This document shows, one piece after another, positions 2,660-48,023 of a stretch of DNA of 64,000 bases. This stretch comes from a virus (Duplodnaviria > Caudoviricetes). The translations under genes were made by a program, and so were the position numbers. The notes under the pieces were generated by a model that saw nothing but the letters and a program-made list of their open reading frames with translations, was not told the origin of the DNA and did not search any database. The stretch is taken from the IMG/VR virus record IMGVR_UViG_3300032007_000054, positions 1 through 64,000 of that record; one strand, written 5' to 3'. Each line of letters begins with the position of its first letter. The first letter of the stretch is position 1.

Positions 2660-4401
2660 TGCTCTCCAATACCGCTACTCCACGCTACTATGGTGAGTTT
2701 CGTCAGAAGGTGTTGCGTGGTGAGATCCCGGTATGTAAAGAGATCTCAATGGAAATGAACCGTATCGACGACCTGATACGGGACCGCAATATTTATTATG
2801 ATGATCAAGCCGTAGAAGGCTTTATTTCTTATTGTGAAAATGAATTGACCCTGACTGATGGCACGGATCTGCATCTCCTGGACACTTTTAAACTCTGGGC
2901 AGAACAGATATTTGGCTGGTATTACTTTGTAGATCGAAGTGTTTATCAGCCCAATCCGGATGGTCATGGCGGAAGATACGTAAATAAACGAATTAAAAAA
3001 CGTTTGATCAATAAGCAATACCTGATCGTTGCACGTGGCGCTGCAAAGTCCATGTACGCGTCTTGTATTCAGTCTTATTTTTTGAATGTTGATACATCAA
3101 CTACGCATCAGATCACAACTGCTCCGACAATGAAGCAGGCAGACGAAGTGCTTTCGCCGATTCGAACAGCAATAACGCGGGCCCGAGGTCCGCTTTTTCA
3201 ATTTTTAACGGAAGGTTCACTTCAAAATACCACCGGAAAAAGGATCGAACGTCAGAAGCTTGCTTCTACGAAGAAAGGTATTGAAAATTTTCTTACTGGT
3301 TCTCTTCTTGAGATCCGTCCGATGTCGATTGCAAAATTGAATGGACTTCGTACAAAAGTAAACACTGTCGATGAATGGCTTTCCGGAGATATTCGTGAAG
3401 ATGTTGTTGGTGCAATTGAACAAGGTGCATCCAAGTTGGATGATTATCTGATTCTTGCAATTAGTTCCGAAGGTACTGTTCGGAATGGTGCCGGTGATAC
3501 GATCAAGATGGAATTGATGGATATTCTGAAGGGCGAATATTATGCTCCTCATGTATCGATCTGGTATTATAAACTGGATTCCCTTGATGAAGTAAATAAA
3601 CCGGAAATGTGGATGAAAGCTCAGCCAAATATCGGGAAGACTGTTACTTATGAAGTGTACCAGTTAGATGTTGAGCGTGCAGAGAAAGCTCCTGCTGCAA
3701 GAAATGATATTCTTGCGAAACGGTTTGGTATTCCGATGGAAGGCTATACCTATTACTTTACCTATGAAGAGACAATACCGCATAGGAAACGTGATTTTTG
3801 GAAAATGCCTTGCGCATTGGGATGCGACCTTTCACAGGGGGATGACTTTTGTGCGTTTACGTTTCTTTTCCCATTACGAAACGGATCCTTTGGTGTAAAG
3901 ACAAGAAATTATATTTCAGAGTCTACACTGCATAAACTTCCAGCTGCAATGCGGATCAAATATGACAGCTTCATGAATGAAGGAAGTCTTGTCGTATTAC
4001 CCGGTGCAGTTCTAAATATGATGGAAGTTTACGAAGATCTTGATGAGCATATTCAGAAATGTCAGTATGATGTTCGTTGTGTTGGATACGATCCTTATAA
4101 CGCCCGTGATTTTATTGAACGCTGGGCACAGGAAAACGGATCTTTTGGTATTGAGAAGGTGAAGCAGGGCGCCCGGACAGAATCTGTACCCTTAGGAGAA
4201 TTAAAGAAACTTTCCGAAGAAGGTATGTTGCTCTTTGATGAAGAGTTGATGTCTTTTACAATGGGTAACTGTATCACGATTGAGGATACAAATGGTAACA
4301 GAAAACTTTTGAAGAAACGATACGATCAGAAGATTGATGCGGTAGCAGCTATGATGGATGCTTATGTCGCCTTTAAACTGAATCGTGAAGCATTTGAGTG
4401 A
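2659..4401 (+). CDS. terL: Terminase large subunit
   Basis: 580 aa; Walker A-like VARGAAKS, Walker B NTVDEW, nuclease GCDLSQGDD, C-terminal KIDAVAAMMDA. Confidence 0.92.
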   Translation: MLSNTATPRYYGEFRQKVLRGEIPVCKEISMEMNRIDDLIRDRNIYYDDQAVEGFISYCENELTLTDGTDLHLLDTFKLWAEQIFGWYYFVDRSVYQPNPDGHGGRYVNKRIKKRLINKQYLIVARGAAKSMYASCIQSYFLNVDTSTTHQITTAPTMKQADEVLSPIRTAITRARGPLFQFLTEGSLQNTTGKRIERQKLASTKKGIENFLTGSLLEIRPMSIAKLNGLRTKVNTVDEWLSGDIREDVVGAIEQGASKLDDYLILAISSEGTVRNGAGDTIKMELMDILKGEYYAPHVSIWYYKLDSLDEVNKPEMWMKAQPNIGKTVTYEVYQLDVERAEKAPAARNDILAKRFGIPMEGYTYYFTYEETIPHRKRDFWKMPCALGCDLSQGDDFCAFTFLFPLRNGSFGVKTRNYISESTLHKLPAAMRIKYDSFMNEGSLVVLPGAVLNMMEVYEDLDEHIQKCQYDVRCVGYDPYNARDFIERWAQENGSFGIEKVKQGARTESVPLGELKKLSEEGMLLFDEELMSFTMGNCITIEDTNGNRKLLKKRYDQKIDAVAAMMDAYVAFKLNREAFE

Positions 4402-5196: not shown

Positions 5197-6234
5197 ATGG
5201 CATCCGAAGATAAATATTATATTATTGATGGAACCCTTTTTCATGCCGACCAGGTTGATGAATTGTATCATGCCGGTCGTGTTGGCATGAAATGGGGTAA
5301 ACATTTACCCGGTACAACTTGGTGGAAAGAAGATATTTATGCAAAAGGAATGAAACCTTCTGCTGAAAATTACGATCCAAGTGCATCCATTAAATATCGT
5401 GGTGGAAATAGTGGAAAAGCTAATCCGAGTATTCCTAATAAATATACAACTCAGGCTCTTTATCGTCAAACAGCTAGAGCTCGTTTAGGTGCTGGTCATG
5501 GCGGAAGATCAAATAGCCAGATTGTTGAAGATGGAGCAGGAAAAGGTAAGTATCATACTGTAGCCGGTCGTGCTGGACAGGCAGCTCGTAATGCTGGATC
5601 ATCAGTAAGCAATGCTGCCAAAAGAGCTCAATTTTATGCAACGAATTCTAATGCTCGATCTTGGGCTGGTAAATCAGTAAAAAGCAAACTTTCCAGTATG
5701 TGGAATACCAGTAAGGGTTATGCTACTGATCAGATCAATAAATTTAAAGATTCTGCGAGACAGGCTTATGCCGGTGTTAGAGATATGGTTCACAAATTCT
5801 TTGAAACCGGTAATAAAGATTATCGTGATTCAAAGATTGAAAATACCACTGCATTATCTCATCTTGAGCAGTTGATTAAAAAAGAACAGCGTGAAGCAGC
5901 TCATAGTTATGTAACATCTAAAGTAAAAGGTGGAGTTGGAAACACTATTAATTCGTTTATTCAGTCCGCACAGATGCGTGTTGCTATGGGAGTAAATAAT
6001 TTTCTGAATAATATCGGTATGTCCAAACAGGTTGATAAATTCCTTAGTAAATTTATGGGGAATAGTAAGAAAATTACTGCTCAAAATAATGTTGCAAGAT
6101 ATCAGATGAATAAAACTAATAGTGGATATAATCGTGCAGAAGCTAATATGCAGCCCACTTCAAGTCTTCCGAGAAAGAAGATTAAAGGGTCTACTAAGAG
6201 TGCACGTACACAAGGTTACGGAACAAGAGTTTAA
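5197..6234 (+). CDS. GMKWG-motif basic protein
   Basis: ELYHAGRVGMKWG; basic, G/A/S/N-rich. Confidence 0.7.
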   Translation: MASEDKYYIIDGTLFHADQVDELYHAGRVGMKWGKHLPGTTWWKEDIYAKGMKPSAENYDPSASIKYRGGNSGKANPSIPNKYTTQALYRQTARARLGAGHGGRSNSQIVEDGAGKGKYHTVAGRAGQAARNAGSSVSNAAKRAQFYATNSNARSWAGKSVKSKLSSMWNTSKGYATDQINKFKDSARQAYAGVRDMVHKFFETGNKDYRDSKIENTTALSHLEQLIKKEQREAAHSYVTSKVKGGVGNTINSFIQSAQMRVAMGVNNFLNNIGMSKQVDKFLSKFMGNSKKITAQNNVARYQMNKTNSGYNRAEANMQPTSSLPRKKIKGSTKSARTQGYGTRV

Positions 6235-41907: not shown

Positions 41908-43146
41908 CTATTTTATTTTTTCGATTTCCGACTTTAGCCATTCATCGGATCTTGTAGTATAAACTGATTCTGTGATATCAGTGATTGTATGGCCGACAAT
42001 ATATTTAATTGCATACTCATTCAGTTCGTATTTCTTTGCTTGTGTGACGAAATGATCACGCCCATCATGCGGTTTATGCTCAGGATTCAAACCAAGAGTC
42101 TCTACAATGAATTTCATGTCTTCCCAGAAGTCAGTATAGCGGTATCTATGATATTTTACTTTGCCACTGCTGAAGACTGTTTTTCCTGTAAAAAGATATT
42201 CTGAGTCTGCTTCGACTGATTCATCATATCGTTTTTTAACCAAATCATAGATTTTTGAATGGATCGGTACAGTACGGTTGGTTCCGGCTTTTGTCTTCAT
42301 ACCGCCGATCATGATTCCTTTTTCAAGATCAACATTCTCAAGTCTCAGCAGTTCCATTTCTTTCGGACGCCAGCCGGAATAACATTGGATCAGGATAATA
42401 TCGATTCCTTCATACTTATAGATATTTTCCCAGAGAATTTTCATCTCTTTATCCGTGTACGGGATATGGTGCCGTACATCCGGATCATATTTTGAATTGA
42501 TCAGCATCGACATCTTGAATCCGCGGGAACAATTCTTGTCAACCAGATCATAAGCAACTGCATAATCCAGCATCTTGTTAAAAGTAATCTTGATTCGATC
42601 CTTGATCTGCGGTGTGGCAGTCTTAATAACTCCTTTTCGGTCAATCTTTACTTCATTCATACAGTATAAAATGTGCTTTGGACGAAGCTCGGTTACTTTC
42701 AGTTTTTCTATTTCTTTGCAATAACGCCAGGCACTTCTTGTCGATTCTATAACCGCTTTTCCAGCTTCTTCAAAGAATTTGGAACTCCATTTTTCGTATA
42801 ATTCTCCTACGGTCAGCGCATTTTGGAATACATATGGATTCTTGTTATATTCCAACAGTGCCTGATAAGCATCATTATAGGTTTCAAAATAAGCTTCCGG
42901 CTGCAGAAGTCTGCTTACCGGTTTTCCTTCGTCGTCCTTTCCAATCGTGACCATGGCTCGGAAAGGCTTACGAAGATTCATTCCTTTCAGCTCTGATATT
43001 TGTCCGAAGCCATTTGGCAGCCGGCGCCTTTTTGCCTGTTTTCTTCGTTTTGATGTACTTTCATTTTTCAGCGGATATCCGCAATGCGGACAGCTTATTG
43101 CTTTATCACTTACCGGCAGATCACATTCTGGGCATTTCGTTAACAT
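41908..43146 (-). CDS. int: Tyrosine integrase with N-terminal zinc ribbon
   Basis: Catalytic R (YSGWRPKE), K (GMKT), HxxR (PHDGR), H (VGH), Y (ESVY); CPEC...CPHC N-terminus; RRLPNGFG arm-binding-like segment. Confidence 0.92.
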   Translation of the reverse strand: MLTKCPECDLPVSDKAISCPHCGYPLKNESTSKRRKQAKRRRLPNGFGQISELKGMNLRKPFRAMVTIGKDDEGKPVSRLLQPEAYFETYNDAYQALLEYNKNPYVFQNALTVGELYEKWSSKFFEEAGKAVIESTRSAWRYCKEIEKLKVTELRPKHILYCMNEVKIDRKGVIKTATPQIKDRIKITFNKMLDYAVAYDLVDKNCSRGFKMSMLINSKYDPDVRHHIPYTDKEMKILWENIYKYEGIDIILIQCYSGWRPKEMELLRLENVDLEKGIMIGGMKTKAGTNRTVPIHSKIYDLVKKRYDESVEADSEYLFTGKTVFSSGKVKYHRYRYTDFWEDMKFIVETLGLNPEHKPHDGRDHFVTQAKKYELNEYAIKYIVGHTITDITESVYTTRSDEWLKSEIEKIK

Positions 43147-43252
43147 TGATATTTTCTCTCCTTGTAGGAGTTAATTATAATCCTACATTTTGCATCTCCT
43201 ATAGTGAGAGGACAAGGATGATCCTCTTGTGTTTTTAGAAAAGGAGTGAAAA

Positions 43253-46170: not shown

Positions 46171-46222
46171 GCCCGCAAGGGCTCTTATTTTTTACATCTC
46201 CTAATATGAAAGGAGATAAGTA

Positions 46223-46477
46223 ATGGAAAATAAATGTGAAATCAGAATTCTGTATGGAATTCGTGAAACGAGTAAAAGGAATTCCCCTTTATTGGGGGTA
46301 GTTTTCTCAAGTGAAGAGAAAGCAAATGAGTATATTGAACACATGTTGCCCAAAAAGTTATGTGTTGTTGAGGAAGGTTCTACTTATAATATTGAATATG
46401 AAGTAGTATTTATACGGTTGAATCCGTATTGTTCCGAAGGTTATGTTCAAGAAGTACGGTATGAACATGATTGGTGA
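46223..46477 (+). CDS. Small hypothetical protein, cassette 8
   Basis: GVVFSSEEKANEYIE motif; repeat-bounded. Confidence 0.65.
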   Translation: MENKCEIRILYGIRETSKRNSPLLGVVFSSEEKANEYIEHMLPKKLCVVEEGSTYNIEYEVVFIRLNPYCSEGYVQEVRYEHDW

Positions 46478-46702: not shown

Positions 46703-46948
46703 ATGGAAGAAGAACTTGCAATCGGTAGTGTACCGGTCTCAATCGCTGCCAAAGCGTATGGAAAGGATGTATGCTGGGTCAGAGCAGGTCTGATCTGTGG
46801 CTGGCTGCCAATCGGCAACGCCACACGGAACGGAAAGCAGGTAACTGCGATCGAAGAAATGGACAGCAGATACGGGCGGATAAATTATTACATTTCGCCC
46901 AAGCTTTTATATGAGCAGACGGGTTATGCCTGGAAAGGAGAGCATTAA
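46703..46948 (+). CDS. Conserved small DNA-binding-like protein (possible excisionase/HTH)
   Basis: GSVPVSIAAKAYGKD..WVRAGLI.GWLPIG; AAGGAG RBS; function is inference. Confidence 0.5.
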   Translation: MEEELAIGSVPVSIAAKAYGKDVCWVRAGLICGWLPIGNATRNGKQVTAIEEMDSRYGRINYYISPKLLYEQTGYAWKGEH

Positions 46949-46951
46949 CCT

Positions 46952-47377
46952 ATGACAACCCAGAATCGTCCGGAAATATCGAAACAAAGTCCATATTGGA
47001 TCAGCCGACACAGATTCTATGAACTGAAGCATTTTTGTCTCCAGTATTATGAGTGGAAGAACGAACTGCAGTTCATCACGGAATGCCATCGACATCCGTT
47101 AGATGGCAAAGAATATTCATCCAATAACATCCGTCACACAGATCCCGTGTTTGAATGCGTAGTCCGGCGTGAAGAGCTGACAAAGAATATTGACATGATC
47201 GATAAGGCTGCAAAAGCTTGTTCGGACGATATCGGGAAGTATGTATTTAAAGGTGTGACAGAGGGAGTGTCTTTCGAGTATCTCTTTACTTCGGAAGATC
47301 GCATTCCCTGCTGCAAAGATTATTACTATGAGGCATTCCGGAGGTTTTTCTGGATCCTCTCAAAATTGCGAAAATAA
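46952..47377 (+). CDS. Conserved phage protein, possible ArpU/RinA-like transcription regulator
   Basis: RFYELKHFCLQY.EWK start and C-terminal helix pattern YY...RRFFW.L. Confidence 0.45.
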   Translation: MTTQNRPEISKQSPYWISRHRFYELKHFCLQYYEWKNELQFITECHRHPLDGKEYSSNNIRHTDPVFECVVRREELTKNIDMIDKAAKACSDDIGKYVFKGVTEGVSFEYLFTSEDRIPCCKDYYYEAFRRFFWILSKLRK

Positions 47378-47672
47378 CATATCCTATAATGGCTCGGAGT
47401 TATGGAAGATAGAGAAATAAGGAGAGAAACAAAGAGCTGTTAAAGACGAATCAAGGGTCAGAATTCTGGCCCTTTTAATTTTCGCAAAATTTGCATGCAC
47501 TATAACGGAACTAGTTTACTTTATTAGAAAGGAGTTAAAAGTGGACTGGCCGTTAGAAAAGCAGGAGATGATAGGCAGGAGTAACTTGCTGTTGGGAGAT
47601 AGCTACCCAACAGGTAGAGTATGTCTGAGCCACATCTCCTGCTATTTTTTATTTTTTGCATTTCCTATAATG

Positions 47673-47757
47673 AAAGAAGTTAAAGCAGCGTGAGCTGTGA
47701 GTGGGCGACGGGTCTTGTCTGCCCGCCTGGAACGGTTCGATTCCGTTCAACTTCTTT
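47673..47757 (+). ncRNA. tRNA-like cloverleaf RNA
   Basis: 9-bp closing stem AAAGAAGTT/AACTTCTTT, GCAGC/GCTGT arm, GGGC(G)AC arm with 7-nt loop, GAACGG-TTCGATT-CCGTTC T-arm; TATAAT just upstream; no CCA. Confidence 0.55.
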
Positions 47758-47792
47758 TAAATTTTATTTTGGTTCTTATTGGAGGTATTGAA

Positions 47793-48023
47793 ATGAAAGT
47801 GTATGTTGTGCTCATGGGTAATTTTAATGAAGTATCGGGACTTATTTCGGAAATTTTTGACAACAAAGAAAAAGCTGTATCTTATCTAGAATCACTTGAT
47901 TGGAAACCGGATCCTCTTGGCTTTGAAGAAGATGATGACTGGGTAGAGGGTTATATATATAGTGATGATCATAGAAAATTTTACTATGATTGGGCAGAGA
48001 TTCGTGAATGGGAAGTTAAATAA
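47793..48023 (+). CDS. Small hypothetical protein
   Basis: GGAGG RBS; MKVYVV...IFDNKEKA. Confidence 0.7.
   Translation: MKVYVVLMGNFNEVSGLISEIFDNKEKAVSYLESLDWKPDPLGFEEDDDWVEGYIYSDDHRKFYYDWAEIREWEVK

Follow-up and report, generated by a model that had tools for sequence, protein, structure and literature searches.

A tRNA-like element at positions 47672–47758 (plus strand) of a rumen phage genome is best read, judging from its sequence and that of its relatives, as a real plus-strand RNA derived from a phage tRNA gene and no longer decoding. The window analysed here is the first 64 kb (positions 1 to 64,000) of the 90,166-bp virus record IMGVR_UViG_3300032007_000054 (Duplodnaviria; Caudoviricetes), which is rated complete, has a G+C content of 39% and whose DNA is present in bovine-gut sequencing runs. 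The element was noticed in a preliminary description of this region, which missed that it belongs to a larger family and that in most relatives it is the 5′ leader of a protein-coding gene and not a stand-alone gene.

The minimum free energy (MFE) fold of the segment is a four-arm cloverleaf of −37.8 kcal/mol (z −4.61; none of 200 shuffled sequences was as stable), in agreement with the tRNA-like shape proposed earlier. Every structural feature reported in the preliminary description is present in the sequence (Table 1), namely the short arm, the bulged arm with its GGGTCTT loop and a T arm stacked on the closing stem. That stem is however 10 bp long when its terminal G·U pair is included, and not 9 bp as first given. 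The anticodon-like loop can alternatively be drawn as GGUCU closed by a G·U pair. The arms are connected by short linkers (AAA after the 5′ strand of the closing helix, GA after the D-like hairpin, CUG before the T arm) and the variable region has 3 nucleotides (nt). No CCA is encoded after the element, as already remarked. The terminator scan marks the T arm and AACTTCTTTT, a place where the base of the branched helix is rich in A-U pairs; the U-rich tail that follows may terminate transcription. Opening of the four outer weak pairs leaves 6 + 6 bp, equivalent to the canonical 12-bp stack, with G47676–C47754 as first pair, an arrangement that would make maturation by tRNA enzymes conceivable.

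Programs and models for known RNA classes do not recognise the element. ARAGORN, one of the checks proposed in the preliminary description, did not call it a tRNA; neither the window nor the complete genome of 90,166 bp yielded any tRNA with it, and the window no transfer-messenger RNA (tmRNA). Rfam at gathering scores gave no match for the element. Extension of the search to E 10 yielded no family apart from chance-level rows, of which the best was tRNA-Sec (RF01852; 15.1 bits, E 3, cutoff 47) and another a permuted tmRNA (13.6 bits versus a cutoff of 47) lying over the T arm and the tail. The departures from a canonical tRNA concern most of the fold. The 7-bp acceptor and 5-bp T stem are replaced by 10 + 6 bp, lengths kept in the 12 variants described below; a 5-bp GNRA hairpin takes the place of the D loop with its G18 G19; and the 5-bp anticodon stem with a 7-nt U33 loop is replaced by a 10-bp bulged stem whose loop lacks U33. 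These same features bear out and strengthen the earlier opinion on decoding, of which the RNA is almost certainly incapable. The T loop follows the canonical pattern (U54-U55-C56-R57-A58 with G53–C61 closure), being UUCGAUU closed by a G-C pair, and a single variant has A58 changed to C. The hallmarks of tRNA-Sec (8/5 or 9/4 stack, 6-bp D stem, long variable arm, UCA anticodon, at least 47 bits) are absent, as are those of the tmRNA tRNA-like domain (detection by ARAGORN or Rfam, tag reading frame). Of the roles suggested in the preliminary description (decoy for anticodon nucleases, T-box ligand, RNase P/Z ligand), that of T-box ligand is unlikely, since the length of the anticodon-like arm does not suit it and there is no anticodon.

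Relatives were gathered from 80 IMG/VR loci reached by protein alignment, 13 contigs and 5 metagenome loci. The metagenome scan used a 20-nt pattern from the invariant arm described below, and its match L101 is an unrelated chance match. Twelve distinct variants of the window type were obtained, 8 of them first found through the neighbouring protein gene and 4 through the pattern inside the invariant arm. The preliminary description had made its proposal depend on conservation and covariation of the structure in relatives, and both were found: across the 12 variants 99.5% of the alignment cells are paired and two-sided changes occur at 7 pairs. None of 500 shuffles was as high in pairing and covariation, and sliding the pairing partners lowered the paired fraction to 43–50%. 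A MAFFT alignment of 8 variants, made independently, gave the same picture of conservation.

The individual arms are kept in different ways. The closing helix is 99.2% paired and its second pair covaries from A-U to G-C. The D-like stem measures 5–7 bp, with compensatory changes (e.g., GCAAAC-GAAA-GUUUGU in L092/L102), and the loops found on it (GUGA, GUAA, GCAA, GAAA, GGAA) are all GNRA. The T stem occurs as GAACGG/CCGUUC, GAACCG/CGGUUC, GAAUGG/CCAUUC and GCGGCG/CGCCGC, with two-sided changes at 4 of its 6 pairs, while the G-C pair that closes the T loop is invariant. In the anticodon-like arm 10 of 10 pairs are identical in all variants and the sole change is a C-to-U in the loop of L093. 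This arm is invariant despite a flanking protein that has diverged to 57–65% identity across these phages and despite unrelated downstream genes, which points to sequence-specific recognition; on the sequences available, such recognition would exceed the needs of a mere stabilising hairpin or processing signal. G·U pairs are found at five positions and the opposite strand scores about 22 versus 115 bits with the window-type model (R2, which includes the promoter and tail flanks), so that the constraint acts on the plus-strand RNA. Compensatory changes, the conserved GNRA class and the invariant arm together indicate that it is neither a chance fold nor a decaying pseudogene. The U-rich tail is present in all 12 variants (9–13 of the 14 bases after the closing-helix CTTC are T). 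No match was obtained in a nucleotide comparison of the region with 50,697 phage records, in exact IMG/VR pattern scans (T arm; D hairpin plus T loop), in a back-translation search with a single neighbouring protein, or in an exact search of 185,579 species genomes with the 20-nt invariant-arm pattern.

The relatives hold two groups of tRNA-like elements, all of them on the gene strand and directly after the local promoter motif. The main family is found in Faecalibacterium phage FP_oengus and about 30 loci. Its members have a normal D arm, a normal T arm and an 8-bp acceptor helix extendable to 11 bp, giving an 8+5 bp stack whose 8th pair covaries. The cloverleaf shows two-sided changes at 14 pairs (0 of 500 shuffles as high) and the elements pass the Rfam tRNA cutoff with 42–62 bits. 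ARAGORN reports most of them as “tRNA-???” because in their anticodon arm a 4-bp stem carries a loop of 6 nt; the others have loops of 4, 7 or 8 nt, or long rods. The FP_oengus member, unannotated at positions 2935–3006 of MG711463.1 (L003), scores 47.9 bits on the Rfam tRNA model and has a 4-bp “anticodon” stem, a 6-nt loop (UUGAUU) and a C at T-loop position 55.

A covariance model built from 21 main-family members (R1) matches the 64-kb window once, at the element, with a weak score (16.4 bits, E 0.019) and with alignment of the closing helix and T arm only. In the other direction R2, with its promoter and tail flanks, matches main-family members at E 3e-4 to 0.7. Searches with R1 and R2 give one tRNA-shaped element per genome. 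The window element also has the placement of the main family: it lies directly after the motif, is followed by a U-rich tail and is syntenic with phrog_11237. On the basis of the cross-matches and of the common placement, tail and synteny, the window type is read as the most derived form of a tRNA-descended family, the element being probably the most diverged member of the tRNA-derived RNAs of FP_oengus relatives. Full-text literature searches returned no description of this tRNA-like RNA family. Both the promoter-proximal family and its GNRA-armed form are apparently undescribed.

The main family is itself diverse. The elements L025:4587–4659 and L052:4609–4681 carry the anticodon UGU in a regular loop of 7 nt (61.7 bits on the Rfam tRNA model for L025). 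In acceptor sequence and promoter-proximal placement they agree with the family, and they lack CCA; such elements may be still-working tRNAs or represent the ancestral state. The L031 phage carries two family members (4223–4306 and 5551–5646). Among these two, L032:3843–3951 and L016:6116–6200, long rods or extra hairpins replace the anticodon arm, or the T arm is degenerate; the fold thus varies greatly in its interior, whereas the closing helix and tail are retained. Most main-family elements are followed by a phrog_10740 gene of about 100 amino acids (aa) without Pfam family, seen at L076:5837–6166, L052:4716–5015 and L053:5612–5938 behind elements of quite different arm types. The RNA element and phrog_10740 are a conserved pairing in that branch of the main family; phrog_10740 is absent from the phage of the window.

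The preliminary description attributed to the element a promoter of its own. A phage-type promoter-like motif does lie directly upstream (Table 1). It is not of the σ70 type, as its hexamers are just 4 nt apart and a σ70 scan at 47656–47671 found nothing. Transcription would start at G47672, directly after the motif, to judge from the pairing of the first bases. With up to one mismatch, TTGCAT-N4-TATAA occurs 11 times in the window versus 3.6 expected, a count reached in none of 100 shuffles. Seven good copies are found on the plus strand of the genome (43190, 44893, 45750, 46540, 47491, 47656 and 71481), each fronting a leader hairpin or a gene; the motif leads into a start rich in purines, then in most cases a hairpin that has a U-rich tail, and finally a ribosome-binding site (RBS). 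The extended form, (cgcaaaat)TTGCAT-N4-TATAAy, is contiguous and not built as a −35/−10 promoter. Homologous motifs precede directly every member of the tRNA-like family in the relatives, with the variant gcgaaaaaTGCA-N7-8-TTATGGAAGG in FP_oengus. In being contiguous and ending at a purine run, the motif resembles the promoters of single-subunit phage polymerases.

A polymerase-like protein that may read this motif is encoded beyond the window. The 916-aa protein at genome positions 87045–89795 (L098:9045–11795) matches phrog_4291 over its full length (1081 bits), a group annotated “RNA-dependent RNA polymerase”, and has a weak match to the Pfam family of RNA-dependent RNA polymerases, an N-terminal helix-turn-helix and a C-terminal domain resembling sigma region 4. 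From its sequence it is a candidate YonO-type two-barrel single-chain RNA polymerase. A phrog_4291 protein was found in 4 of 5 relatives tested, FP_oengus among them, and the presence of such a two-barrel polymerase-like protein in the phage and its relatives fits a phage-specific promoter class. For YonO, the one characterised enzyme of its kind, the promoter sequence has not been determined (PMC5467207).

We favour, with a probability of roughly 0.4, a non-decoding tRNA-derived RNA that heads its transcript and would also act in trans as a tRNA-shaped small RNA. Transcription from the phage-specific promoter would begin probably at G47672, the first transcript bases forming the closing helix. 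The RNA would fold into a tRNA-like four-way junction in which the T arm, with its true T loop, continues the closing helix as one stack, the GNRA hairpin at the D-arm position probably rebuilds a tRNA-like elbow and the invariant arm projects at the anticodon position. The U-rich tail would either stop transcription in part or serve as trailer for host tRNA 3′-end processing of the RNase Z type; by either route a stable tRNA-shaped small RNA would be released, while read-through transcripts would carry the downstream gene. The released RNA may then behave as a tRNA mimic. Its invariant arm would give specificity for a partner of host or phage origin that binds by tRNA shape, such as a nuclease directed against tRNAs or an enzyme of tRNA processing or modification. 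Selection acts on the T loop, on the GNRA loop and above all on the exact arm sequence, though a stabiliser or processing signal needs none of them, which favours a released RNA with a specific partner. A bolder version, which we consider rather unlikely, is that FP_oengus-like phages of gut and rumen make dedicated, fast-diversifying tRNA-shaped RNAs from promoters of their two-barrel polymerase, the “anticodon” arm being a replaceable specificity module, and that such RNAs counter tRNA-directed defence or capture a tRNA-handling enzyme. The GNRA-armed form of the window would then be the most derived version of such a counter-defence RNA.

Several observations weigh against a function in trans or favour a purely cis-acting leader, a “head” of an early-gene cassette that, even if released, would have no job of its own; we take this to be possible but doubtful. 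As such a head, the compact fold might protect the mRNA from decay that depends on its 5′ end, provide a host tRNA-processing cut site that defines the mRNA end, or act with the U tract as a promoter-proximal attenuator. In 10 of the 12 window-type variants an RBS and start codon follow 22–32 nt after the closing-helix CTTC without a second promoter (in an eleventh, L088, about 70 nt downstream), and the same holds within about 20–40 nt for most main-family members, so that a cis-acting leader is an equally natural outcome. One head is joined to unrelated genes, as are the plain hairpin heads at 43190, 44893, 45750 and 71481, and the plain hairpin with U tract at the same place in other cassettes suggests a generic leader function. 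The closing helix begins at the first base past the motif, and the unit immediately upstream likewise ends in a branched fold and a U tract. For the four variants ascertained with the arm pattern the invariance of the arm is given by design. Furthermore, the closing helix is A-U-rich beside the tail and would thus make a weak terminator; the 10+6 bp stack misfits the 12-bp ruler of RNase P, RNase Z and the CCA-adding enzyme unless the outer four weak pairs open; and complementary words of 9–11 nt occur in the phage genome at about chance frequency, none centred on the invariant loop. The leader explanation, however, leaves unaccounted that the tRNA shape is confined to a single cassette in each genome, and that a stabiliser or RNase P/Z signal would need the acceptor/T half alone, whereas the anticodon-like arm is the most constrained part and the GNRA loop is kept. 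The gene downstream of the window type is not conserved, hence no particular gene would be regulated, and FP_oengus and L032 have a further promoter motif after the tail, so that the following gene is served by a promoter of its own and the tRNA-like unit is independent of it. Together the closing helix and the tail look like a generic transcript feature (5′ structure, weak terminator or both), of which the tRNA shape is a special elaboration.

Other origins and roles were considered besides the released small RNA that we prefer. The preliminary description left room for a degenerate tRNA. The failure of ARAGORN and Rfam to recognise the element and the graded series formed by the relatives, from near-canonical to aberrant, would suit a decaying pseudogene without present function, but the fold is kept at 99.5% of pairs through compensatory changes, the GNRA class persists through five loop sequences and one arm is invariant in diverged phages whose neighbouring proteins fall to about 57% identity. 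The compensatory changes also argue against recent transfer of one cassette as an explanation of this conservation, and decay is very unlikely. A DNA-level element, either a cassette recombination or boundary site or a tRNA-derived attachment site, is suggested by the position in an array of repeat-headed cassettes next to the integrase gene, by identical heads joined to different genes and by the fact that phage attachment sites often derive from tRNA 3′ halves. Yet G·U pairs are kept on the plus strand only, with the drop in opposite-strand score given above, the complete cloverleaf covaries, its 5′ half included, the integrase gene lies 4.5 kb away, and the invariant-arm pattern has no exact match in the species genomes searched; this role is highly improbable. 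We give the least credence to a working decoder or amino-acid carrier of unusual shape, matured by RNase Z and CCA addition and charged in the manner of tRNA-Sec or allo-tRNAs. Its canonical T loop, the 12-bp stack obtained if the outer pairs open, the regular UGU loop of the distant relatives L025/L052 and the normal occurrence in Firmicutes of tRNA genes that lack CCA and have U-rich trailers speak for it. Against it stand the missing U33 and G18G19, the absence of a 7-nt loop flanked as in tRNAs, the 10-bp bulged arm and a tRNA-Sec score of 15 bits versus a cutoff of 47, as well as the finding that family members share one acceptor sequence whatever their “anticodon” and that most have 6-nt loops.

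Phage tRNA genes are known from T4, T5 and mycobacteriophages; some encode variants that have an altered anticodon loop and evade the tRNA nucleases of the host. The usual explanations for phage tRNAs are codon usage or the replacement of tRNAs that host defences cut. The element resembles these phage tRNA genes in being phage-borne and tRNA-derived with a canonical T arm, and its relatives at the locus pass the Rfam tRNA cutoff; the known phage tRNAs decode, whereas it has no anticodon loop, D loop or CCA and has a 10+6-bp stack. Non-decoding tRNA shapes joined to mRNAs are found in plant-mitochondrial t-elements, in mascRNA/MALAT1 and in mitochondrial tRNA punctuation, and phage RNAs cut by RNase P include the C4 RNA precursor of P1/P7 and the M3 RNA of phi80. 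The likeness to t-element-type signals extends to the U-rich trailer and the lack of an encoded CCA, but our element would sit at the extreme 5′ end of its transcript and has a closing helix that exceeds an acceptor stem in length, and its conservation is highest in the arm dispensable to processing enzymes. Protein-binding tRNA mimics include the bacterial Y-RNA-like YrlA. Like YrlA, the element is a non-coding RNA with a module resembling the tRNA elbow and probably with a protein partner, although YrlA ends at the anticodon-stem position and accompanies Rsr/Ro60 while the element ends at the acceptor position. tRNA-Sec and allo-tRNAs have 8/5, 9/4, 8/4 and 9/3 architectures. They share with our family the lengthened acceptor helix (8+5 bp in the main family) and differ from it by the long variable arm and the UCA anticodon, both missing here, and from the window type also by its 10+6 bp. 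Promoter-proximal leader RNAs occur in temperate phages (lambda 6S RNA/tR′, HK022 put RNAs); these too are structured RNAs placed right after a phage promoter, with a U tract and ahead of genes, but they are not tRNA-shaped.

A lineage of common gut and rumen phages offers a tRNA scaffold under selection after loss of its decoding parts; in the window type a GNRA hairpin has taken over from the D loop, and an invariant rod from the anticodon arm. This raises the question of how a phage benefits from a tRNA shape that does not decode, and since cultured FP_oengus, a phage of Faecalibacterium prausnitzii, carries a family member, the question is open to bench work. The elements are missed by tRNA finders or given as “tRNA-???”, and are consequently invisible in current phage annotation. 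The analysis also flags a phage-specific promoter class together with a conserved two-barrel RNA-polymerase-like protein that may read it.

Table 1. Features of the tRNA-like element and of its surroundings (window coordinates).
Feature	Position	Strand	Remarks
Promoter-like motif TTGCAT-TTCC-TATAAT	47656–47671	+	TTGCAT 47656–47661, TATAAT 47666–47671
Closing (acceptor-like) helix, 5′ strand GAAAGAAGUU	47672–47681	+	Pairs with 47749–47758 in the MFE fold
D-arm substitute GCAGC-GUGA-GCUGU	47685–47698	+	5-bp hairpin, GNRA tetraloop GUGA
Anticodon-arm substitute	47701–47726	+	10-bp stem, one bulged U, loop GGGUCUU
T arm GAACGG-UUCGAUU-CCGUUC	47730–47748	+	6-bp stem, canonical T loop; directly abuts the closing helix
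Closing helix, 3′ strand AACUUCUUUU	47749–47758	+	Runs into the U-rich tail
U-rich tail UUUUAAAUUUUAUUUU	47755–47770	+	Possible weak intrinsic terminator or 3′-processing trailer
RBS GGAGG	47781–47785	+	Precedes the 76-aa open reading frame
76-aa open reading frame, ATG start	47793–48023	+	No promoter of its own; weak DUF7336 / phrog_3002 matches
Upstream sister unit	47491–47655	+	Promoter-like motif, hairpin with RBS and mini open reading frame, branched RNA, 10-bp closing helix, U tract
phrog_11237 gene, 141 aa	46952–47377	+	Near the integrase; tRNA-like element at 47672 lies downstream on the same strand
Integrase	41908–43146	−	4.5 kb from the tRNA-like element

A run of small plus-strand genes extends from 43190 onward, opposite in direction to the integrase gene. 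The product of the phrog_11237 gene has hundreds of homologues and is encoded next to the integrase in hundreds of phages. By this 141-aa protein the closest cultured relative is FP_oengus (38% identity), with the same gene order beside the integrase. The order phrog_11237 gene–tRNA-like element, near the integrase and on one strand, is also found in FP_oengus and about 36 loci. The predicted model of the protein is confident (predicted local distance difference test, pLDDT, 81.5). A Foldseek search with it gave no match at E 0.001. The VIA-align matches were all weak, of a strength that helical proteins often reach by chance: the C-terminal half aligned with sigma region 4 (Z about 5), and a Q antiterminator complex was matched with Z 5.5 (root-mean-square deviation 8.2). 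The protein is possibly a transcription factor.

Two overlapping open reading frames, 47541–47693 and 47697–48023 (GTG start), were considered as a coding explanation of the conservation and rejected, the substitutions in the stems being compensatory; the real downstream start is the ATG at 47793 behind GGAGG and not the GTG at 47697. In a bovine-gut metatranscriptome (X23) two contigs are 100% identical to the phage, at about 46208–46459 (word depth about 100) and 46831–47006. Neither this run nor a second possible RNA run covers the element, contigs cannot reveal RNA ends, and libraries of this kind under-sample small structured RNAs; the data are uninformative on expression of the element. 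The contigs do establish that the phage or its DNA was in this RNA library.

The upstream sister unit, a non-coding one, belongs to the surroundings and is separate from the tRNA-like RNA. It scores 28 bits with R2, has a fold z of −6.25 and contains a covarying hairpin with the kept loop AGAUAGCU; its mini open reading frame begins M-D/N-W and lies inside the hairpin that holds the RBS. The unit is kept in L084, L087, L091, L103, L088 and L004, and accompanies the tRNA-like element in most relatives of the window type.

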